Sequence record: PQ511146.1
Source: Escherichia phage NHEP1
DNA length: 64,000 bases
Reading direction: 5' to 3' (one strand)
Below the pieces are notes generated by a model. The model was not told where the DNA came from. It made no database searches and saw only the letters and a program-made list of their open reading frames with translations. The translations under genes and the position numbers were made by a program. Below, in pieces: positions 5,235 to 36,030 of the stretch (the first letter of the stretch is position 1; each line of letters begins with the position of its first letter).

Positions 5235-7313
5235 TTAAAAAGGTGTTTCGTCGTCTTCAAAACCAGGAACGTGGTTAGAGGACGGATCATCATACTGAAG
5301 GTCTTCCTGTGTGTCAACAGGGTTAACAGCAGGGGTTATAACCTTATCAGCCACAACCTTGCCCACAGGTGTTTCTACAACTGCATGCTCCTGATCCTCA
5401 AACATAGCCTGAGGTCTCCAAACAACCTCCCCACCTTCCCCGTCTGTAAACATCTGCATTTCTTTGTCCCAGTACCAGTTGCTGGCATCATAGAACTTGC
5501 CTGTGTGGGGATCCATAACTAGAGTGTCCGCAATACCTAAGGTTTTTGCTGGGCGGTTTTTAAGACCTACCAGTCGGACACGTCCACGGGAACGATCCAC
5601 CATCTCCTCTGCCTCTACCCCGACAACCACCCAGCTAAGTTGCTCCAATCCGGCACTACCGCGAAGGTTCTCTTTTCGTACAGGGTACCAGAAAGGTAAC
5701 GGATTTCCATCCTTATCCTTCGGAGGTACAATCTCTGTGCGCTTCAGGTGAGCAATCACCAAGATAAACACATTAAACTGCTTACAGAACGCGGCTAGTT
5801 GAGTCATAGCCATGTCAAGCTCTTTACGCTCATCCTTAACATTAAGCCCTGAAATCACCATAGACAGGTGATCCAGCACAATGTAACGGCAGTGATACAG
5901 GCACACCATTTGTTTAAGCTTAGTGATCAGCTCATCTACAGGGATGGAGCCGAAATGCTTGAACACTTTGATTTTTCCGGCCTTGGCCCAAGATTGATGA
6001 ATCTCAGCGTGCTCCTGATCGGTCAGGAACTGACTGGGGTCTTCAACAAACTCTTTAACATCAAACCCCAGCTGGTTAGCGTACAGAGAGTTGATTGCTT
6101 CCTCAGGATCCTCTTCAAGGTGAATCAGGCACAGGCGATCATCCTCTTCATAATCATCAGCTTTAGGGCATGTTGGATCCATCAAGTATCTTGCAATGCA
6201 ATGTTCCAGCTTCTTGGCTACAGTTGTTTTACCACCGCCAGACGGGCCTGTCAGCATCATCAAGGTGCCTTTGTGGAGTCCTTTCAGCATCTTCTGCAGT
6301 TTAGGGAACTCTGCACTGATATCTACGCCATTGGAAGTCTTCTTACGAAGAGATTCAATGGAGAAGTCTTCTAAATCAGATACAGCATCAGGCACATATT
6401 TGACTGGGTGACGGAACATGTTGACAATATCTTCCAGCTTTTTAGCCTTCAGCATGTCACGAATATCTTTTACACCATCAGGGTCGTTTACCTCACCCGG
6501 GTATTCCACGTGGTAAACGTTATCAGCCATCAAAAATGCTGCGATATTATGTGTGGCTTCAACACCTTTAATAACGTGTTTTTGCTTCTCTACCTCGTTA
6601 GCTGCATCGTTGTCCATTGCAAGGACCACTGTTCCGTAGCTACGGATAAATTTCTCATTGTTCGCAAAAGTGTCTACGGCGTTTGCACACCCACAGTTAA
6701 TTCCAACAAAAGGCAGGCATGGTTTTCCTGCCAGATCCCCGCCGTTGATAACTGCATCAATCCCATCCTGGACTTCTTTAGCCCACTGCTTCACCTTCGC
6801 TGGGGCTTTAGCATTGGTGAGAATTCCTTTTACTTGTATCTGATATGCAGCCTGCCACGCTGCAATAACATCTCCTTCTCCCTCACAAACGTTAATCTGC
6901 TTACGGTTGTTGGAGGATGCACACAGCTTTTGACCAAACATCTGGGAGTTGGCCTTTACTATGCCAACAACCGAGAAATGGCCCCTTTGCTCTTTAGGGA
7001 TTGTCCAGTCACGCTTTTTAAAGCCAGATAGATTACCGTAGCGGTCATAATACGGAAAGTAGGTGGCAGTAACAGTTACACCATCCTCTTGGGATAGCGA
7101 TGATCGTACACCAAAATATTGTGCAGCCATCAGTCCAATATTTTGTTGTGGAACAGGGACAATTTTAGTGTTTTCTAAAACAGTCTCCACAGTTTCAACT
7201 TCTTTTTCATCACGATAGTCTCGTTTCACACTCCCCCCACTTTTATACTTAGTTGCTTTCGGGTTTGGCTCACCGAAACGGTTGTATGCAGATGCCATGA
7301 ATTTACTGCCCAT
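5235..7313 (-). CDS. DNA primase/helicase (TOPRIM-like N-terminal region plus DnaB-like ATPase)
   Basis: 692 aa; Walker A LTGPSGGGKTT, Walker B-like YIVLDHLS; acidic VLAMDNDAANE region N-terminal of the ATPase; AAGGAG SD. Confidence 0.7.
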   Translation of the reverse strand: MGSKFMASAYNRFGEPNPKATKYKSGGSVKRDYRDEKEVETVETVLENTKIVPVPQQNIGLMAAQYFGVRSSLSQEDGVTVTATYFPYYDRYGNLSGFKKRDWTIPKEQRGHFSVVGIVKANSQMFGQKLCASSNNRKQINVCEGEGDVIAAWQAAYQIQVKGILTNAKAPAKVKQWAKEVQDGIDAVINGGDLAGKPCLPFVGINCGCANAVDTFANNEKFIRSYGTVVLAMDNDAANEVEKQKHVIKGVEATHNIAAFLMADNVYHVEYPGEVNDPDGVKDIRDMLKAKKLEDIVNMFRHPVKYVPDAVSDLEDFSIESLRKKTSNGVDISAEFPKLQKMLKGLHKGTLMMLTGPSGGGKTTVAKKLEHCIARYLMDPTCPKADDYEEDDRLCLIHLEEDPEEAINSLYANQLGFDVKEFVEDPSQFLTDQEHAEIHQSWAKAGKIKVFKHFGSIPVDELITKLKQMVCLYHCRYIVLDHLSMVISGLNVKDERKELDMAMTQLAAFCKQFNVFILVIAHLKRTEIVPPKDKDGNPLPFWYPVRKENLRGSAGLEQLSWVVVGVEAEEMVDRSRGRVRLVGLKNRPAKTLGIADTLVMDPHTGKFYDASNWYWDKEMQMFTDGEGGEVVWRPQAMFEDQEHAVVETPVGKVVADKVITPAVNPVDTQEDLQYDDPSSNHVPGFEDDETPF

Positions 7314-26935: not shown

Positions 26936-27136
26936 ATGGCTGATTTTTGTAAAGATTGCTCTGAAGAGTTGTTTGGCTTTGACTGCAAAGATTTGGAAGG
27001 TCTGATCACTGAGGATCAGTGGAAGGAAGGCTATGCAGCACCTGTTATTTGTGAAGGTTGTGGCTATACCTATGTTGACCATAAAGGTAAGCGCGTCAAG
27101 CCGTCTGAAGATGGGGCATGTTGGGAGTATTACTAA
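26936..27136 (+). CDS. small zinc-ribbon-like protein
   Basis: 66 aa; CxxC...CxxC (FCKDC ... CEGCG). Confidence 0.5.
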   Translation: MADFCKDCSEELFGFDCKDLEGLITEDQWKEGYAAPVICEGCGYTYVDHKGKRVKPSEDGACWEYY

Positions 27137-27145
27137 CTATAAAAA

Positions 27146-27172
27146 GAAAGGGGCCATTTGGCCCCTTTTTTA
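27146..27172. terminator. bidirectional rho-independent terminator between convergent transcription units
   Basis: AAAAAGAAAGGGGCC-AUUU-GGCCCCUUUUUU: 6-bp GC stem flanked by A-run and U-run. Confidence 0.75.
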
Positions 27173-27183
27173 TCTACTACTTG

Positions 27184-30100
27184 TTAAAGAGAGAAAGTCG
27201 CGTAGGCTCCCAGACGATACTGCTGATCACCAGGGAACATAACACCTATAGAGGCTGTCCCTAGAATCCTGCCTTCCTTTCCAGACTCCATTCTGAACCC
27301 TACCCATCCGGAACTCCTTGCAGCCTCGATGTTGTCGCTATACCCAAAAGTGGCAAGCTCGTCAACACCAGCTCCAAACAGCAACTGAAGCTGACTTCTC
27401 GGAAGCCCTATAATTTCAGGAATATATGCACCAAAGTACACCATCTGCCCTACCTTAGGACCGCTGCCGTACTCCATCGGCTTGCTTGTAGAGAAAGTCT
27501 TCATACCAGAAGTCCCTGCCGGATTAGGGTATGCCCCGTTTGTTGCTGTGCCTATCCACATTCTCCACTGAGGTGCCATCTGTCTGACAGTGAAAGATGT
27601 TGAAGACGTTTTGCGGCCTGCATCATCCGTAACTACAAACTTTATAGTGACATTACCAGGGGCTTTAAATGTTACCAATCCTGTGGTAGCATCCACTGTT
27701 GCAATGTTAGTATTACTACTTTCCCAAGTCTTTCTAATCCCTGGCACATTGGAAGGGGTAATAGAAGGTTCCTGCATCTGCAGTTTACCGCCCACAATCC
27801 CTATGCCGTTACCTGGATTATACAACGCACCAACTTCATCTACAATGTTACCTGCCTTGAGGCTGTACTTTTTAGAGAAGTTGTAAGTGCCGTTATATGC
27901 GTGTGTCCCTGAGAAGGTTACATCTGCCTTGCCGTTGGAGATGCAAACCAAAGCATACTTCCTGTCAGGCAACTGTGCCCCAGTTTCTGGGTGAGTTTTA
28001 CCCACCTGGAACACGCTCGGGTCAGTAGAGTCGTGGCTATCACTAACAGAGCTTGGACCACCCATCAACTGTGACAAGCAATTCCTTACCCATGTCCAGT
28101 TATTGTCACTGGAGAAGTCTACAGTCAAATCAAACACAACCCACTCATTTGGCTTCCACACAGGTGTTGTGATCAACTTACCAACACCCCCACCCTGAAG
28201 AGTAGGAGATTGTTCAGTGATCAGGGCAGAGTATGCCAGAGTGCCCAACTGCATAGTCTGGCTTGCTGTCCTCACTACCTTAGAATCAGCATCTGTGAAG
28301 TTGTTGATGATCTGGAATGTGCCATAAGTGTTTTTACAGGTAATTCTGGCGTTCAGTGTGTCAATCTTCCTCACATCTGCCATAGCAGTGTTAGACACAG
28401 AGAAGTCAGAAGCTTTAGCTGAGTTTGCTGCAACAGCCGGATCAACGTTGAGGGTTGCGTTGAACTGGCAGGCAGGAGTAACCAGCAGCTTGTTATCACC
28501 TATTTGCTTCCATGAAACACTTTGAACAGGGAGATTCCATTTAATACCTGAGAAAACTTTAGCAACCCTTGGTCCCAGAGCTCCCGTCCTGTTGTCTTTA
28601 CAGCACATGGACATAGTGATCGTTGACGGGGTGGCCTGACCAAACAATTGTTGTGCTTTTGCAGAGGACATGGTGTAGAAATTGTCCTTAACAAACTCAT
28701 CAGCCGCTAACGATCCGTCAGATCTCCACCATTGCACCTGGTACCCAGTCTTATCCCAGCCACCGACCTGCTTTAAGTCCTCCCAAGAGATTTCCAAATC
28801 TCCGGTGGTAGGGTTAATTGCCGCAGTTCCTGGTGTTCCAGATGACCATATTGGGATATCGAACCACGCTGGTTTAACAGACTGCACTGCGTTAGGTCCT
28901 ATTGCAGCAGCAAGTTGTTGACCCATCAATACGCGAGCATCTTTCACCAGACCCCACTCAATCATAGACCCAGAGTAACCCTCTTTCTTATATGCGGATG
29001 ACCCATTCAAGTGAATAAGTCTACTTGTGCCGAAGTTATGTGCTCCACCGCCGTTGTCGTCTGCAAAATTGGTTATGATTCTATCCCTGATGTTTTTCCA
29101 TGCCCTGCCCCCAATCTCGTAGTCATGGTCATAACATCTTTGCAGCGTTGTCCAGCAAATGATCGCCATCCTTCTGCCGTTACTGAAGCCAAAAGCCTGA
29201 TCGTTAAGCTCTCTCCACAAATAGCAGTTAGTGGTCCACATAGCTCTGTGAATGTTGAACCAGTTTATAGACTTGGCTGAGTTATCCCACTGAGTCCCAG
29301 GTAATTCAGGCCACACTGCATTAACCAGCATGTCTTCTGTTCCTGCATCAACCAAGAACCCTCTTACCTTTTTACCCATGCCTACCCTGTCTTTTGCAAT
29401 CCAACTGCCAAACAATCTCAGTTTTGGACCGTAAACAACATCTTCCGGATGCTCAAAAGAGACATACTTCAGATATACTGTAGGGTCACCATAGGTGCCA
29501 TCACAAACAGCTTTGTGCATGTTCTCGCCAAGGTCTAGACGAAGTCCTGTTACAACTTTTGACGTGTCGGTGAATTTGTCTGTTAAATCAAATTCATACC
29601 ACCACCAACCTGCACCCAACAATACCTTCTTACAACGCTGCGCATCTGTATCAGATATTCTCTTATCTCCTGAAAAAGGTGAGTCAGCAAACTGATAGTG
29701 CAGAGCAATTTCAAAAGGATGTGTGGAGGTCCCGTTTTCTGCAAGGACTTGTTTACCTATTAAGTCACACTTAATAATCATCACAACACGTTTGTACCCA
29801 TTTGTTACTGGGATCTGCATAGACATAGATGTCCCGTCCATGTTTGATCTCAGCGCAGTCATGATGATATAAGGATCAACGGCATTACCAAGAGTTTCAG
29901 GCCCTGGAATTATCTTATACTTCTTAACCTGCCCCATGATGTAATCACTGGCGTAAGTTGCAGCCTCGAAGCAAGATCCCCCGTTAGGCAGTTCCCCTGG
30001 CCCCCAGAAAAATGCGCCATAACAGTTATAAAACCACTTGTTAGGGTCGTATTTGTTCTTGAAGGTCTGAACCTCGTTGGCCTGTTTTGTCAAGAAAACC

Positions 30101-32817
30101 TGCGTATCTGTAAAGATTGCAGGGTTTACTCTTGACTGTCGATTAGCATACCCGGTTTGGTTAAACCATTGATTGCAAGAGTAATCCCTCATATAATCGT
30201 AATCAGAGTATTTGTTTGCATCCTCGTTCCAACACATGTTGAGGTTGGTGCCGCCCATGCATACAATATATTCTTCAACGTATTTATCACTTCGAGTGGG
30301 AATTCCTATGAACCATCTGTTAACAGGCTCGTCCCAAGCGGTACGTTCATCTTTAACGCAGATTGCAATCCAGTCATGTGTCCCTGTTTTCTTGCACACA
30401 TCCCGTTTCATACCGTAGTAGAATTCTTTGGTATTTGGCTCAGGTGCGCTTATCAGGTAGCTCCACGCTTGGTCTGCATAGGTTCCGTCAGTGCGTGGGT
30501 CGTGATCAAAGGCGTACATGATGATCCTTTCCCCGCCAAGATGTTCACCAAGAGTAACTTTGATGTTCACATCTCCGTAACCGTTGCGAACAACATCCAT
30601 ATTGTCAATAGAGATGCCTCTAGGGGTGTAGGCAATTTTCAGTGAGTTATCCTCACTGGTGCCCCCAAGTGTAATCCCTATGTTGTTTGTTGTCCCGTCG
30701 GCATATCTTACTGTGGCTTCCCAGCGTATTCCGAAATATCCTGCATCATGGCTGACAATTTTCAGTGTACGAGCACCTGGGTGAGGTTTTCCAGGATCAG
30801 GCCAAGGGTCTGGGTGTTCGTGGACAGTCAACGACGTTCCGTTTTGCTCGTTAACCTGCAACATTTTACCACCTCTGCCGTTAGGGTTGAACTCCCATAC
30901 GGCCTGTGTCTGCACTAAGTTGTTGTAGGTATTTCGTCTCTGATCATAAATCTCTTGGGTAACATCATAAGTGACTGATCCAGCATCCATTCTGTGGAGT
31001 CGGACCATATACGATGTATCTCCTTCTACCGCAGGCTGAGTCCCATTCAGCCCGAAGTATACAGTGTCATTAACATGGAACTGTTTGTTTCTACCGACAG
31101 TATGCCACTTACCGTCAGAAGGATACGCAGGAACTATGGTGTTCCAGTTCAAGGTCCTTGTCGTGTGCGTTCTGCCTGTGCCATGCTTGTCATGATAGGT
31201 TATTTTTACAGAGTACAGGCCACGTCTGTTCACATTCCTGTTATACTGAGTAACAACAACTTCGTTGGCCCCGCCGTGGTTCCAGTTGGTGGAGAATTGG
31301 TAATTTGCATCTGTAACAACCGTACCTGCAGCATTTACCAGTTCAATCTTGTCAATAATGAACGTAGCTCCCTCTGGCTGAGGCTTCAATTTCATCTTGA
31401 CCGTGTCACCAATGTAGATATTGCTAACGCTGCTAACACCGTTAACGTCAAAAATATCATCAACACCCCAACTATCTACTGGGACATTTTTATACCAATT
31501 CTCAGGAACCTCTGTGAACCCTTGACTATTAAGTCTGCCACCAAACAGGTTATTAGAACCTGCAAAACTTCCCCTTGGGATGCCTGACCACCAAAGTTTA
31601 CCATTAACAACAGTAAAGGTCCCTAAGAAACCTTCTCTGTGAATGCCTTGGAAATAAACACTCTCTGTCCAGCTAACTGGGAGGCGTTGCTCAACGTATT
31701 TAGCCGTAGCAAGGGCCTGGTAATGAACAAAATCGGCACGGGGGTTATTGTTTGCAGATTGTGCGCCAATATCGTTGCACAGGTTTCGAGAGAAGCCACG
31801 ATACTGCTTAGTACCATTGTTGAAGAAAATGCCACTTGTGCCGTACCCACGAGCCATTATCACCTCATGGGTGTAGGTTATATTCAAAGCACGCCAGGCA
31901 TCATCCCCCCAAACGTTTTGACCATAAAATACGTTAACAAGTTGTTGGTCATCAGGTCTGTGCATTCTTTGTGTTGCAACCACTGCCCCGTTCGGACCAC
32001 ACATGAATCCTTTCCACTCCTCATCTGCAGGAATGCCTTTCAAATCGTTGCGAGTAATCTGAGCAGGGGGCCAAACAAGGTCGTTTCTACTGTTGTTTCT
32101 CAGAAAGTCGTATCCAGCAATCCAAAAACCTCTAGGCCCACCGAAAATAACAGAGTTGTCATGCACCTCGCAGTTGATACTTGGGTTTTTCCAAGGGCCT
32201 GTTTCAGGATTTTCTGATGTTTCACCAATCTTTACAGGAGTTGCATGCTGGTTCTTATCTACATGTAAAGATCCGTAGGTGTTGTTACCAGACCCGTACA
32301 GGTGTAAAATGCCGTCACCCTCAGCCTCTGCCATAACCCAAACAGTGTTGTTAATACCACCCATTACCTCGATAAGGCGCTCTGGGTGGGTGTCAAGGTG
32401 CAATCCTTGAACAATCTGTTCCGGAAGAGGTGTCCACTCGTTTACGCAAACATCGTTACCACCTGCCGCAGTGGATCCGATAAGACCTGCAGTGCAACCG
32501 ATGTAGAAAAACTGGTTATCAAAAGTCCGGATCACAAACGCACGGTCTGCTCTCCACACATGATCAACATTCCAGGCCGTCTCGCTCGGGTAGTTTATAG
32601 GGTTACGATCCCCAGTGCGACACTCCCCGAACTTGTTATAGCCAGTAATATTAAGCTGACCGTCGTCAAAAAGTATAGCTAAGCTATTTACATAAGCTAC
32701 TGTAGTGCTTGTACCGTCACTGTTGTCTATTGGGTATGACAGAACAGCAAGTTCCTTAACTCCACCCCTCTTATCGAGGAAATGACGACCAAGTTTTAGC
32801 AAAGGGATTGGAAGCAT
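27184..32817 (-). CDS. giant putative virion protein (1877 aa) with N-terminal RCC1-like beta-propeller repeats and C-terminal-region Big_2 Ig-like domain
   Basis: RCC1-like glycine-rich repeats (GYNKFGECRTGD, YGSGNNTYGSLHVD); Big_2-like TWESSNTNIATVDATTGLVTFKAPGNVTIKFVVTDDAG; terminators on both sides. Confidence 0.6.
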   Translation of the reverse strand: MLPIPLLKLGRHFLDKRGGVKELAVLSYPIDNSDGTSTTVAYVNSLAILFDDGQLNITGYNKFGECRTGDRNPINYPSETAWNVDHVWRADRAFVIRTFDNQFFYIGCTAGLIGSTAAGGNDVCVNEWTPLPEQIVQGLHLDTHPERLIEVMGGINNTVWVMAEAEGDGILHLYGSGNNTYGSLHVDKNQHATPVKIGETSENPETGPWKNPSINCEVHDNSVIFGGPRGFWIAGYDFLRNNSRNDLVWPPAQITRNDLKGIPADEEWKGFMCGPNGAVVATQRMHRPDDQQLVNVFYGQNVWGDDAWRALNITYTHEVIMARGYGTSGIFFNNGTKQYRGFSRNLCNDIGAQSANNNPRADFVHYQALATAKYVEQRLPVSWTESVYFQGIHREGFLGTFTVVNGKLWWSGIPRGSFAGSNNLFGGRLNSQGFTEVPENWYKNVPVDSWGVDDIFDVNGVSSVSNIYIGDTVKMKLKPQPEGATFIIDKIELVNAAGTVVTDANYQFSTNWNHGGANEVVVTQYNRNVNRRGLYSVKITYHDKHGTGRTHTTRTLNWNTIVPAYPSDGKWHTVGRNKQFHVNDTVYFGLNGTQPAVEGDTSYMVRLHRMDAGSVTYDVTQEIYDQRRNTYNNLVQTQAVWEFNPNGRGGKMLQVNEQNGTSLTVHEHPDPWPDPGKPHPGARTLKIVSHDAGYFGIRWEATVRYADGTTNNIGITLGGTSEDNSLKIAYTPRGISIDNMDVVRNGYGDVNIKVTLGEHLGGERIIMYAFDHDPRTDGTYADQAWSYLISAPEPNTKEFYYGMKRDVCKKTGTHDWIAICVKDERTAWDEPVNRWFIGIPTRSDKYVEEYIVCMGGTNLNMCWNEDANKYSDYDYMRDYSCNQWFNQTGYANRQSRVNPAIFTDTQVFLTKQANEVQTFKNKYDPNKWFYNCYGAFFWGPGELPNGGSCFEAATYASDYIMGQVKKYKIIPGPETLGNAVDPYIIMTALRSNMDGTSMSMQIPVTNGYKRVVMIIKCDLIGKQVLAENGTSTHPFEIALHYQFADSPFSGDKRISDTDAQRCKKVLLGAGWWWYEFDLTDKFTDTSKVVTGLRLDLGENMHKAVCDGTYGDPTVYLKYVSFEHPEDVVYGPKLRLFGSWIAKDRVGMGKKVRGFLVDAGTEDMLVNAVWPELPGTQWDNSAKSINWFNIHRAMWTTNCYLWRELNDQAFGFSNGRRMAIICWTTLQRCYDHDYEIGGRAWKNIRDRIITNFADDNGGGAHNFGTSRLIHLNGSSAYKKEGYSGSMIEWGLVKDARVLMGQQLAAAIGPNAVQSVKPAWFDIPIWSSGTPGTAAINPTTGDLEISWEDLKQVGGWDKTGYQVQWWRSDGSLAADEFVKDNFYTMSSAKAQQLFGQATPSTITMSMCCKDNRTGALGPRVAKVFSGIKWNLPVQSVSWKQIGDNKLLVTPACQFNATLNVDPAVAANSAKASDFSVSNTAMADVRKIDTLNARITCKNTYGTFQIINNFTDADSKVVRTASQTMQLGTLAYSALITEQSPTLQGGGVGKLITTPVWKPNEWVVFDLTVDFSSDNNWTWVRNCLSQLMGGPSSVSDSHDSTDPSVFQVGKTHPETGAQLPDRKYALVCISNGKADVTFSGTHAYNGTYNFSKKYSLKAGNIVDEVGALYNPGNGIGIVGGKLQMQEPSITPSNVPGIRKTWESSNTNIATVDATTGLVTFKAPGNVTIKFVVTDDAGRKTSSTSFTVRQMAPQWRMWIGTATNGAYPNPAGTSGMKTFSTSKPMEYGSGPKVGQMVYFGAYIPEIIGLPRSQLQLLFGAGVDELATFGYSDNIEAARSSGWVGFRMESGKEGRILGTASIGVMFPGDQQYRLGAYATFSL

Positions 32818-32825
32818 TGTGTTCT

Positions 32826-32858
32826 CCAGATAAGAAAACCGCCCCGTCAGGAGCGGTC
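32826..32858 (-). terminator. rho-independent terminator after the 581-aa fibre gene
   Basis: Minus transcript CCGCUCC-UGAC-GGGGCGG followed by UUUUCUUAUC. Confidence 0.55.
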
Positions 32859-32865
32859 AGATATA

Positions 32866-34611
32866 TTAACGTTGTGCAATAACCACATCCACAATATCAC
32901 CAACACCACAATATGTCAATTGTAGCAAGGTGACACTGTTGGCTTTGTTGTTAATAACAGGAGTAGCCGACAGTATGGCATATTTATCGTGTAAGGTCAC
33001 GTTGTGGCCTACAGCATCCTGAATGACATAGATGATTGCAGTGAACGGGTAAGGTTTATCTTCAGCCGATGTTCCAGGCCATTGCCCTATTGTAAAATCC
33101 CCTTTCGCGTGGACAACATACATATTGGCCTGCCCGTTAGGTGTCCATGTCCCACTAGATGCGTCAGCCTCCTCTAAGTCAAACTCCACCTTCCCTGCAT
33201 GGAAAGCAGGGGCAGTAATAGTTTTACCAGCTTCAATTTCTTGAGAGGTGGTTATCTTGCCACTGGAGTTAATGCCATTACAGACAAAGTTGACATTAGA
33301 GAAGTCTGGCAGCCACCCAGTCACTGTACCTGATATTTCAAGGTTGTGAAGGTAGGTGGTGCCCGTCCCTGCTGCGTTTAAACTAACATCTCCATTTACC
33401 TGCAAGTTTCTGGTAACGTTGCAGTTTTCAGAGTTTGCAGTTGTTGCAGTTAGAGTGGTGGTTGTCAGCTCGGTAATTGCACCTTTGTTGGCTGTAAGCC
33501 CTTCTCCTTCAAAAGTGGCACGCTCATTCACCCTCAGAGTATTTAAAGATATGTTCTGGACAGATGCTGTGCCACGAATGACTATAGATCCGCCAACCTC
33601 TAAATCTCCATTGATCAGTGCATCTCCCGTGCTTTCAATATAGCTAGGGTAGATCATGGTGCCATCTACAGAGTAGGTTATCCCTGTAACGGTGCCTGTC
33701 ACCTCAAGGTTCTTAACCCTGGTGGTCCCATCAACCTGCAATGTCGGTTCGGTGGCTGCCTTCATGGCATTACCGCGAATGTACACGTAGTCAAAAAAGT
33801 TATTACCTAGACCATCAAAATGCACATCGTTGTTATTAGCCACTGGTTTCCCAGAAGTTATAGTGTCAGCTATAGCTCTGTGAGTTGATACTTCATGAGG
33901 TTGCAGCTCTGTGCTTCTCCAGTCTGCATGCTTAGGATCGCTCCACGCAAAGGTTAGTGTAGAAGTATTTGCAGTAAGGATTAGGTTCCTGAAGCGTGCA
34001 GTAGAATCTGCTCCATTAACAGGCCCGTGTAAGGTAAGGGTGCCCCCAACTATGGTGTTGGCAAGTTCTGTAAGACCTTTTACCACCAAAGATCCTACAG
34101 TAACTTTCATCCCCTCCATGGCTTTAAATATGCTATCCACATAGTCAACAACAAACTCTGTGTTTGCTATAGATTCGGACTTATCGTCCATTGGAGGTGT
34201 AGGTACTCTCGGGTCACCTTCGAACCTTGGACTGTTAAGTTTTGCGTAGTATTTTGCCATTACTGCAGAATCGGTATATAATCTCCAGTTCGGAGATCGT
34301 GAAGGATCTGCTGGCATCCTAACCGGGTTAGATTTTGATGCTGCTGGGGCGTACCACCACTGAGTGCCTGTATCCCCTTTAAACTCATACAACTGGTTAA
34401 AAACTGTTGTGGATGCACCATACGCCCAAGGGATTGGTGGCGTTTTAAAATAAAGGGTGTCAAGCATGGCTTTTCGTACCGTAGGGATGGTGGTCCCATC
34501 CTCTACGACAACTTCATCCACAGCGTTACCGTTGACAATCAAGTGCAAACGTTCAGAATCAACAATTACTTGATCTACCGCCTGCTCAAAGCTTGTCATG
34601 TCTTGCGCCAT
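32866..34611 (-). CDS. tail fibre / tailspike-like protein
   Basis: 581 aa; repetitive beta-rich segments (NLEVTGTVTGITYSVDG, NLEISGTVTGW) in fibre gene cluster. Confidence 0.55.
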   Translation of the reverse strand: MAQDMTSFEQAVDQVIVDSERLHLIVNGNAVDEVVVEDGTTIPTVRKAMLDTLYFKTPPIPWAYGASTTVFNQLYEFKGDTGTQWWYAPAASKSNPVRMPADPSRSPNWRLYTDSAVMAKYYAKLNSPRFEGDPRVPTPPMDDKSESIANTEFVVDYVDSIFKAMEGMKVTVGSLVVKGLTELANTIVGGTLTLHGPVNGADSTARFRNLILTANTSTLTFAWSDPKHADWRSTELQPHEVSTHRAIADTITSGKPVANNNDVHFDGLGNNFFDYVYIRGNAMKAATEPTLQVDGTTRVKNLEVTGTVTGITYSVDGTMIYPSYIESTGDALINGDLEVGGSIVIRGTASVQNISLNTLRVNERATFEGEGLTANKGAITELTTTTLTATTANSENCNVTRNLQVNGDVSLNAAGTGTTYLHNLEISGTVTGWLPDFSNVNFVCNGINSSGKITTSQEIEAGKTITAPAFHAGKVEFDLEEADASSGTWTPNGQANMYVVHAKGDFTIGQWPGTSAEDKPYPFTAIIYVIQDAVGHNVTLHDKYAILSATPVINNKANSVTLLQLTYCGVGDIVDVVIAQR

Positions 34612-35940: not shown

Positions 35941-35974
35941 CACGTTCTCCTGAGAAAATTCCTTAAGGACTATT

Positions 35975-36012
35975 TTAACACTTTAGAGAACAAAATGCAA
36001 GAACGGCATCCT
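35975..36012 (-). terminator. rho-independent terminator between the two fibre cassettes
   Basis: Perfect 8-bp stem GAACGGCA-(4 nt)-UGCCGUUC followed on minus strand by UUGCAUUUUGUUCUCU. Confidence 0.6.
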
Positions 36013-36030
36013 TGCCGTTCTGACCTTTGT

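Follow-up and report, generated by a model that had tools for sequence, protein, structure and literature searches.

A propeller-bearing Ig-string protein closing the tail-fibre cluster of a Vequintavirus is a candidate accessory adhesin

The largest gene in the 64,000-nt stretch of DNA analysed here (the window) encodes a giant protein that is best read, with moderate confidence, as an accessory Vequintavirus virion adhesin, non-essential in the laboratory, probably low in copy number and made by transcriptional read-through. ORF calling in the window placed the gene at 27184..32817 on the minus strand, with an ATG start and a product of 1877 aa (calculated mass 208.3 kDa); the runner-up ORF spans 1381 aa, in agreement with the original prediction that this is the largest gene. 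It shares 97.9 % nucleotide identity with phage S127 BCL3, has matches in 121 phage records and encodes a protein matched end to end by PHROG 15684. These identities mark it as an ortholog of rV5 gp27 (YP_002003529), already catalogued in rV5-like E. coli phages, and the window comes from a Vequintavirus. rV5 gp27 and the other Vequintavirus orthologs (86–98 % nucleotide identity) are equal to it in length, position and flanking terminators (t028 and t027/t026) and display no essential difference from it. As a finding, the gene is therefore ordinary and largely known already, and it does not represent a new kind of system. The gene and the elements around it are as follows.

27141..27172, both strands: bidirectional intrinsic terminator (rV5 t027/t026), where the late minus-strand operon meets a plus-strand gene cluster (terminator scan, rV5 annotation and Table S4, Murica)
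27184..32817, minus strand: giant gene, 1877 aa, ortholog of rV5 gp27, bas49_0041 and bas54_0041 (ORF, nucleotide identity, annotations, PHROG 15684)
32828..32858, minus strand: internal terminator or attenuator hairpin (rV5 t028) with an interrupted T-tract (hairpin scan, rV5 Table S4, Murica annotation)
32866..34611, minus strand: upstream gene for an rV5 gp28-like fibre protein of 581 aa (synteny)
35971..35980, minus strand: nearest upstream late-promoter-like motif (TGTTAAAATA), equivalent to rV5 P030 (motif scan, rV5 Table S4 section C)

The gp28-like gene adjoins the giant gene in every relative examined for synteny; the two share one transcript, and the giant gene is the final gene of the late tail-fibre cluster. 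Between them, a hairpin (32858..32837; 9-bp stem, six G-C pairs) is followed by TTCTTATCT (32836..32828), an interrupted tail with six T in nine positions. Its computed dG is −14.8, and the 2013 rV5 paper, in which t028 and t027/t026 were both published, gives −12.4 for t028. The hairpin sits between the stop codon of the gp28-like gene (32868..32866) and the GGAG ribosome-binding site of the giant gene (32827..32824), and the 19 nt that separate it from the ATG contain only the T-tail and this ribosome-binding site. Other genera have a hairpin at this position too; their stem sequences are unrelated, and two pair changes are compensatory. The element has the G+C-rich hairpin, U-tract and conservation of an intrinsic terminator; because the T-tract is poor in several relatives, it might stabilise or process mRNA instead of ending transcription. 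Downstream, a hairpin at 27168..27147 has A6 at one edge and CTTTTT at the other, and is therefore a predicted terminator in either direction; it separates the stop codon of the giant gene (27186..27184) from a convergent plus-strand gene (26936..27136), an arrangement also present in PVP-SE1 and phAPEC8. A generic terminator scan returned nine sites vs 8.5 ± 2.7 in shuffled sequence, which is not significant alone; the two flanking terminators are its top-scoring sites, occupy precisely the two gaps between genes and are conserved in relatives. The proposal that terminators bracket the gene (32858..32828 and 27147..27168) thus holds.

The further proposal, that these terminators insulate the gene as an independent transcription unit with its own promoter, appears highly improbable. 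Strong hairpins on both sides speak for it, as does a sigma-70-like site (TTGACA-17-TATTGT with an upstream TG, 10/12) at 32919..32891. However, this site lies within the 3′ end of the upstream coding sequence, its −10 element decays to TATCGT in close relatives, and, because it precedes the hairpin, transcripts from it would still need to read through; we rejected it as a dedicated promoter. The region holds 24 promoter-like sites vs 16.5 ± 4.1 expected, which is no significant enrichment, and the gap between hairpin and ATG leaves no room for a promoter. The motif scan found no late-promoter motif after the upstream hairpin, unlike the five other late-cluster hairpins that are followed by one, and the rV5 paper assigns gene 27 no promoter and groups genes 27–81 in a single unit. 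By these sequence comparisons, the giant gene is shown to lack a promoter of its own and to stand behind a conserved, comparatively weak hairpin directly before its ribosome-binding site, so it must be transcribed by read-through, and would be made in smaller amounts than the products of the upstream gp30–gp28 genes. Transcription into it probably starts at the late-promoter motif near 35980, itself preceded by a hairpin (36021..36000); the giant gene would end the unit begun there, and the bidirectional terminator would close the late operon. What survives of the suggestion of separate regulation is that expression is probably tuned apart from that of the upstream genes; the independent unit does not.

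The protein itself can be divided into the following regions.

31498..32817, minus strand: aa 1–440, RCC1-like beta-propeller module with a conserved N-terminal peptide, M-x-PIP-L-L (profile homology)
30283..31470, minus strand: aa ~450–845, three predicted Ig-like/beta-sandwich domains (AF2 and weak family matches)
29434..30282, minus strand: aa 846–1128, family-restricted region whose C-terminal end is a confident CBM/lectin-like beta-sandwich (aa ~959–1124)
28522..29433, minus strand: aa 1129–1432, highly conserved segment (aa 1129–1329, low-confidence helices) and FN3-like domain (aa ~1330–1420)
28069..28521, minus strand: aa 1433–1583, variable segment, unalignable between close and distant family members (BLASTP)
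27577..28068, minus strand: aa 1584–1747, two Ig-like domains, the second being Big_2
27187..27576, minus strand: aa 1748–1877, exchangeable C-terminal tip domain with two alleles (nucleotide and protein alignments)

A full-length Pfam scan of the giant protein returned no match to the RCC1 families (PF00415, PF13540 and PF25390). Tested directly, PF25390 aligned with aa 44–199 (E value 7.8e-5, 22.6 bits, below the curated cut-off of 150) and RCC1_2 scored 13.2 bits; weak PF25390 matches were present in 12 of the 16 family members. The N-terminus shares 40 % identity with phAPEC8 gp86 and 31 % with PVP-SE1 gp40, both of which exceed the Pfam cut-off for RCC1 (PF00415). Searched against 1.84e9 proteins, the family profile recovered a bona fide RCC1 propeller (P0023; PF25390 348 bits, seven repeats) at an E value of 4e-13 over seven matched stretches, and a second protein (P0026) at 1.6e-7. 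A profile of the module, which also took in more canonical relatives, matched UVR8 (1.7e-16), HERC1/2, RPGR, RCC2 and RCC1 (1.4e-4) in the PDB, and the module aligns with stand-alone RCC1-like proteins across their entire ~385-aa length. At the level of profile homology, the N-terminal ~440 aa are thereby shown to be an RCC1-like repeat (propeller) module, so the RCC1-like N-terminus proposed at the outset is borne out by profile methods, though unseen in the full-length Pfam scan. Its length and the end-to-end alignment with ~385-aa propellers fit seven blades. We infer a closed seven-bladed fold from sequence only, because the AF2 model of aa 1–900 (16-sequence alignment, mean pLDDT 47.9) is of low confidence here, with pLDDT below 50 for aa 146–450; the propeller model was too poor for the fold search and was left out of it. 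The first ~200 aa, including MxPIPLL, are the only part of the giant protein common to the syntenic gene of other genera and to the stand-alone proteins.

The remainder of the protein is shown to be a string of Ig-like, CBM/lectin-like and FN3-like beta domains confined to the family, followed by Big_2 and a two-allele tip. Between aa ~450 and 845, AF2 returned beta domains at pLDDT 55–86, and Bact_surface_Ig-like matched weakly in 13 of the 16 family members. Region aa 1129–1432 holds many invariant residues (pLDDT 21–37, then 53–76), matches phrog_32204 (E value 8.5e-4) and appears related to phi92 gp153 (hhalign probability 65 %, E value 6e-5). The core as a whole (aa ~450–1430, ~1000 aa) has no counterpart outside the giant-protein family, nor in phAPEC8 gp86 or PVP-SE1 gp40. 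When the homology search was repeated with the full-length family profile, no protein was added to the 15 already recovered, aa 1125–1445 recovered fragments of the same family only, profiles of aa 840–1128 and aa 1125–1445 found nothing among PDB sequences, and the full-length profile gave sub-threshold Ig-like matches only in the PDB. BLAST detected no internal repeats, and nothing in the window is paralogous to any stretch of the protein.

Beyond a BLASTP coverage gap between aa 1432 and 1584 in P0003–P0015, the Big_2 domain predicted near the C-terminus is present as an Ig-like fold (PF02368; aa 1685–1732, nt 27622..27765, E value 5.8e-8, 33 bits vs a cut-off of 22.8). The C-terminal region also matches phrog_215 (E value 1.9e-15). 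In about half of the relatives, nucleotide alignment begins only at gene nt 382 (plus strand), and identity is 61–65 % in the tip vs >92 % elsewhere. Over aa 1584–1877, about 73 records show at least 90 % identity and 37 records 60–80 %. The window carries the rV5-type allele; the other occurs in about a third of relatives, including Bas54, and BASEL describes 'moderate allelic variation' at this gene. The proposed domain HMM scan thus recovered Big_2 above its cut-off, with RCC1 below the curated threshold and glycan-enzyme families absent, while structure prediction supplied beta domains and the CBM/lectin-like sandwich and failed over the propeller.

Fold searches returned Ig-like strings, S-layer proteins, cadherins, intimin, Hoc and CBM/lectin beta-sandwiches, together with Ig-decorated major capsid and tail-tube proteins and the lambda gpV C-terminal domain. 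This gives the protein the look of an accessory adhesin, one of the roles originally suggested. Trimerising elements (coiled coil, triple beta-helix, beta-helix, S74 chaperone, tailspike fold) were absent from all searches, in keeping with the suggestion that the protein is unlike the adjoining fibres, which are of the trimeric type. No enzymatic family or fold was found in Pfam, NCBIfam, PHROGs, PDB sequences or the fold searches, and PADLOC anti-phage defence and counter-defence models gave no match at E ≤ 0.01. Membership of the intimin/invasin family was considered and rejected. These adhesins have a Big_2-type Ig domain in common with the giant protein; however, the match to NCBIfam intimin_all is short (21.5 bits vs a cut-off of 1400, 39 residues only), the PDB intimin match is confined to aa 1695–1733, and the outer-membrane beta-barrel and C-type lectin-like tip are missing, which together argue against membership.

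In other genera, phAPEC8 gp86 and PVP-SE1 gp40 (phrog_11922, 'tail protein') occupy the same last slot of the fibre cluster, after a gp28-like gene and hairpin and before a bidirectional terminator, and share the homologous N-terminal RCC1-like module and a Big_2 domain, but are only 604–891 aa long and lack the ~1000-aa core. Stand-alone RCC1-like proteins from relatives in the Vequintavirinae (phrog_4219, e.g. W70_237-239) consist of a homologous ~385-aa propeller alone, with an MFPIP N-terminus, and are encoded elsewhere in the genome; in W70 virions they are abundant by MS and proven components (PMC11370258). The 'chromosome condensation' name of these proteins is a label inherited from eukaryotic RCC1. 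Propellers also occur in the host-recognition proteins phi11 Gp45 (five blades; GlcNAc binding proposed), phiKZ gp131C (seven blades) and PRD1 P2, but those are non-RCC1 propellers, central or C-terminal in trimers, whereas the giant protein has its propeller at the N-terminus, as its conserved and not its variable part. No direct precedent for an RCC1-type propeller in a phage receptor-binding protein emerged from a literature search.

Published data on orthologs bear on the abundance and necessity of the protein. MS of rV5 virions assigned gp27 three weak, non-tryptic peptides and nine spectra (3.1 % coverage) and listed it beside the non-structural rIIA; the W70 comparison also lists gp27 among rV5 virion proteins, in a supplement whose locus numbering looks shifted by one. 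Structural studies have not placed the giant protein in the virion, and it is not one of the three fibres resolved by cryo-EM of Bas49/Bas54. On this marginal evidence it is a candidate virion component, probably low in copy number. It is also dispensable, being non-essential in the laboratory: in HIDEN-SEQ, the ortholog bas54_0041 tolerates transposon insertions on E. coli K-12, and disrupted or deleted copies of the gene occur in three isolates (APECc02, V18 and ime). The gp28-like gene is absent from the dispensable fibre genes named in the HIDEN-SEQ study.

The BASEL name for bas49_0041 and bas54_0041, 'lateral tail fiber protein with intimin domain', would make the protein a classical homotrimeric fibre and primary receptor-binding protein, a role that suits a gene at the end of the tail-fibre cluster with a C-terminal tip that varies among phages, as receptor-binding tips do; some fibre genes are, moreover, conditionally essential in clinical isolates, bas54_0041 not being singled out among them. 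We regard this as unlikely, given that no search returned a coiled coil, triple beta-helix, intramolecular chaperone or tailspike fold, that the domain kinds are typical of monomeric beads-on-a-string proteins, that no assembly chaperone gene is adjacent and that the ortholog is both dispensable on K-12 and missing from the cryo-EM-resolved fibres. T4 Hoc is likewise dispensable in the laboratory, and a Hoc-like protein decorating the capsid, neck or tail tube, with Ig-like domains adhering to mucus or environmental surfaces and not to the host cell, would account for this dispensability, for the Hoc, capsid, tail-tube and gpV fold matches, for the absence of the protein from baseplate-focused cryo-EM maps and for the match of the C-terminal 285 aa to phrog_215 ('structural protein with Ig domain', PHROGs class head and packaging). 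Hoc and other phage Ig-like accessory proteins do resemble the giant protein in being dispensable, surface-exposed Ig-like strings, for which weak adherence to carbohydrates has been proposed (Fraser et al. 2006). Yet Hoc is a ~40 kDa protein on capsid hexamers, whereas the giant protein, at 208 kDa, combines a propeller with a CBM-like domain, and its gene belongs to the fibre cluster and not to the head module. Its conserved N-terminus is that of phrog_11922, rV5 has a separate abundant head-decoration protein (gp61), and the low MS coverage speaks against stoichiometric decoration, all of which renders such a role improbable.

The enzyme-bearing fibre of the original prediction fares worse, its one lead being faint and indirect. 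A hidden carbohydrate esterase or glycosidase might reside in aa ~1129–1329, which is the most conserved segment besides the propeller, has invariant acidic and His residues and aligns with phi92 gp153, itself faintly matched by a SASA esterase (E value 0.008); VDAGTEDM aligns with gp153 WGQGENDA, which is similar to SGNH block III, and the adjoining fibres contain glycan-modifying domains. However, with no enzyme family recovered by the sequence databases, no evident catalytic-serine block upstream of the aligned region, an hhalign probability of just 65 % and a low-confidence AF2 model, such a domain is very unlikely.

Returning to the accessory adhesin that we favour, the conserved propeller would dock the protein on the virion, a role supported by the N-terminus being the sole part conserved across genera, always in the same gene slot. 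The propeller could instead bind a ligand itself, by analogy with phi11 Gp45. The beads-on-a-string body would form a long flexible stalk, probably monomeric, and the CBM-like domain, Big_2 and variable tip may bind the surface glycans of particular hosts weakly and reversibly. Such binding would help adsorption on some strains and be dispensable on E. coli K-12. A bolder extension, which we consider doubtful, is that the RCC1-like propeller serves rV5-, phAPEC8- and PVP-SE1-like phages as a previously unrecognised virion-docking adaptor, by which monomeric adhesins of the Ig-string kind are suspended from the distal head of a trimeric fibre, with a new glycan-binding or -modifying domain in the ~1000-aa core conditionally extending host range. 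One candidate site for such docking would be a density with no assigned protein that touches the head of the TC8 fibre in the Bas49/Bas54 cryo-EM maps.

The Vequintavirinae infect a broad range of hosts and serve as therapeutic and biocontrol phages. Annotation and experimental design would gain from treating their largest 'fibre' gene as encoding a propeller and Ig-string accessory adhesin that is dispensable, has exchangeable tip alleles and is expressed by read-through. The analysis also shows that the database labels 'intimin' and 'regulator of chromosome condensation' are domain-name artefacts. The 'Swiss-army-knife' fibre network of these phages is partly gene-assigned, three of nine annotated fibres having been placed in Bas49/Bas54.

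The giant gene is the longest ORF in the window, in agreement with the original prediction. Its DNA matches 121 phage records, all rV5-like myoviruses of the genus Vequintavirus (top identity 97.9 %, Escherichia phage S127 BCL3). Orthologs include rV5 gp27 (1878 aa, annotated 'Ig-like domain-containing protein') and BASEL bas48_0041, bas49_0041, bas54_0041 and others, labelled 'lateral tail fiber protein with intimin domain'; the intimin label is based on 39 residues, and PHROG 15684 covers the protein end to end. Fifteen records (MG0656xx) named 'Campylobacter phage', host C. jejuni, are ~90 % identical to the giant gene over its full length and are probably mislabelled, or contaminating Vequintaviruses. 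The gene and its flanks are arranged as follows.

27184..32817, minus strand: giant gene, ATG start, 1877 aa, 208.3 kDa
32868..32866, minus strand: stop codon of the preceding (gp28-like) gene, 7 nt before the upstream hairpin
32858..32837, minus strand: upstream hairpin (rV5 t028), 9-bp stem with 6 G-C pairs
Between this hairpin and the ribosome-binding site, minus strand: T-rich run TTCTTATCT
32827..32824, minus strand: GGAG ribosome-binding site, then ATG at 32817
15 nt past the giant-gene stop codon, both strands: downstream hairpin GGGGCC-AAAT-GGCCCC

The downstream hairpin, located between the giant gene and a convergent plus-strand gene (26936..27136), has A6 on one flank and CTTTTT on the other and is therefore terminator-like on both strands. 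A generic terminator scan of the region returned 9 sites vs 8.5 in shuffles, i.e. no excess; hence, the case for both hairpins is made by rank, position and conservation, which bear out the predicted terminators on either side of the gene. Both hairpins are in the annotation of phage Murica, and the 2013 rV5 paper tabulates t028 (dG −12.4) and the bidirectional t027/t026. Given these entries and the annotated orthologs, the giant gene with its hairpins is an already catalogued object: the physical observation was real, and the feature is an ordinary one.

A hairpin occupies the upstream junction in every relative examined, namely close Vequintaviruses, uncultured relatives (45–74 % protein identity), phAPEC8, PVP-SE1 and phi92. 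The stems show no relationship in sequence and the T-tracts are of uneven quality; within the giant-protein family, two stem pairs have undergone compensatory changes. Its presence in all relatives, the unrelated stems and the compensatory changes mark the hairpin, at the level of sequence comparison, as a selected, ancestral element. The most economical reading is a partial terminator or attenuator; alternatively, it may act in mRNA stability or processing.

Comparable hairpins follow many minus-strand structural genes (62376, 61492, 59093, 48180, 42368, 36021 and 8112), and at five junctions the rV5 late-promoter motif TggTAaAAtA is found in intergenic sequence 15–70 nt past the hairpin.

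62376 to 62282, minus strand: hairpin, then late-promoter motif
59093 to 59061, minus strand: hairpin, then late-promoter motif
48180 to 48128, minus strand: hairpin, then late-promoter motif
42368 to 42311, minus strand: hairpin, then late-promoter motif
36021 to 35980, minus strand: hairpin, then late-promoter motif

The late structural cluster is thus modular, with a post-gene GC-rich hairpin and then this motif at its boundaries; the hairpin at 32858 is described as the sole one checked without a restart motif. The proposal that the giant gene forms its own transcription unit is contradicted here: the 19 nt from hairpin to ATG are filled by the T-tail and ribosome-binding site, the motif scan found no copy after the hairpin at 32858, and the rV5 authors gave no promoter for gene 27, taking genes 27–81 as one unit. 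For these reasons the giant gene, judged from its sequence context, must be promoter-distal and transcribed by read-through, in a unit with the gp30-, gp29- and gp28-like genes that probably starts near 35980. If the hairpin is a partial terminator, giant-protein dosage would be determined by how much transcription reads past this conserved internal element. A sigma-70-like site (32919..32891) was rejected as a promoter, as it lies within a coding region upstream of the hairpin and close relatives carry a degraded version of it.

A full-length Pfam scan of the giant protein returned Big_2 alone and no RCC1 match; scanning aa 1–460 alone gave PF25390 (RCC1-like domain) at aa 44–199 (E value 7.8e-5), with weak matches likewise in 12/16 family members. 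Residues 1–197 align with phAPEC8 gp86 (40 % identity, E value 3e-28) and PVP-SE1 gp40 (31 %), both of which are above the Pfam RCC1 repeat cut-off (PF25390 E value ~1e-10). An exhaustive profile search of aa 1–1130 against 1.84 billion representative proteins returned 15 hits in all, those outside the family being restricted to aa ~1–200, with no match for aa 200–1130. All ten Pfam-scanned hits carry RCC1 signatures; two are bona fide propellers, one of which was matched seven times (E value 4e-13). The module profile also matches solved RCC1-like propellers (UVR8, 1.7e-16; HERC1/2; RPGR; RCC2; RCC1, 1.4e-4). The predicted RCC1-like N-terminus is thereby established by profile comparison; the quality of the AF2 model of the module was insufficient to confirm that it closes into seven blades.

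Phage fibres usually combine a conserved N-terminus with a variable C-terminus. As conservation across genera is confined to the RCC1-like module, which is invariably found in the gene that closes the fibre cluster, we infer by analogy that this module docks the giant protein on the virion. Stand-alone proteins of ~385 aa that fall in both phrog_11922 ('tail protein') and phrog_4219 can be aligned with the module from one end to the other; MS of W70 virions showed the phrog_4219 members W70_237-239 to be abundant. Databases (phrog_4219/IPR009091) class the RCC1-like proteins in virions of Vequintavirinae relatives as 'DNA, RNA and nucleotide metabolism / regulator of chromosome condensation'; help in DNA packaging has been suggested for them. 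The label appears to be a name-transfer artefact; in the fibre cluster, it is 'tail protein' genes that begin with this module. P0017 (853 aa), a relative of phAPEC8 gp86, joins the module to Big_2 and two DUF285 repeats, which shows that the distal modules attached to this N-terminal propeller are exchanged for one another.

Family members share aa 1–1432 at 45–59 % identity and aa 1584–1859 at ~36 %, with an unalignable stretch between; aa 1125–1445 found nothing outside the family by homology search or among PDB sequences. The AF2 model of aa 830–1877 (mean pLDDT 55) contains the following.

aa ~959–1124: confident beta-sandwich (pLDDT 75–86)
aa 1129–1329: low-confidence helices
aa ~1330–1420: FN3-like domain
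aa ~1589–1759: two Ig-like domains, the second being Big_2 (pLDDT 80–92)
C-terminal tip: moderate confidence

Big_2 near the C-terminus was thus recovered by both Pfam and AF2. Foldseek matched Ig-like/cadherin-like strings (NUP210, cadherins, S-layer proteins SbsB/Sap/EA1) and, among phages, an SU10 tail protein, Hoc, Ig-decorated head and tail proteins and PVP-SE1 gp40; the fold matches included no enzyme and no trimeric fibre or tailspike. A faint SASA esterase match (E value 0.008) came from phi92 gp153 (hhalign probability with the giant protein 65 %) and received no support from catalytic motifs, leaving the suggested enzyme-bearing fibre without support.

The best-supported reading is that the giant protein is a dispensable, low-abundance accessory adhesin, in which a conserved RCC1-like docking propeller would carry a long stalk of Ig- and CBM-like domains, with an exchangeable tip. 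The final ~130 aa occur as two alleles, 61–65 % identical in phages otherwise >92 % identical, with that of the window in roughly two thirds of records; this agrees with the moderate allelic variation remarked by BASEL. HIDEN-SEQ reported tolerated disruptive transposon insertions in bas54_0041, confirmed here as the ortholog, on E. coli K-12; bas54_0040 is absent from its dispensable list. Three sequenced isolates carry damaged copies: APECc02 (aa 1–433 fused to aa ~1416–1840, split into three ORFs), V18 (several internal deletions) and ime (split in two). In rV5 virions, MudPIT detection of gp27 was marginal (3 non-tryptic peptides, 9 spectra, 3.1 % coverage, listed beside rIIA).

Cryo-EM of Bas49/Bas54 placed 3/9 annotated fibres and left density on the TC8 fibre head assigned to no protein; the 2026 phi92 structure likewise gives fibre II no gene assignment. 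The upstream gp28-like gene (32866..34611, minus strand) shows a weak bactofilin-type (beta-helix) Pfam signal and nothing more; its homologues have precomputed Phage_phiTE_241_N and Phage_phiTE_241_C hits. Its product may be the RBPseg TC8 fibre; the unassigned density is in contact with the distal head of that fibre.

Two phi92 ORFs seem to be what is left, after decay, of a gene resembling gp86 or the giant gene.

L006 (phi92 locus) 6321–6929: gp152, first residues (MYPIP N-terminus) joined to gp86 aa 411–587, the Big_2 piece
L006 7096–7983: gp153, aligning with giant-protein aa ~1146–1422

In uncultured distant relatives, a protein with YadA_anchor, the membrane anchor of trimeric autotransporters, is encoded ~1.3 kb beyond the giant gene (L012 10163–11008 and L013 10189–11298, minus strand in each locus), an unusual find in a lytic phage genome.
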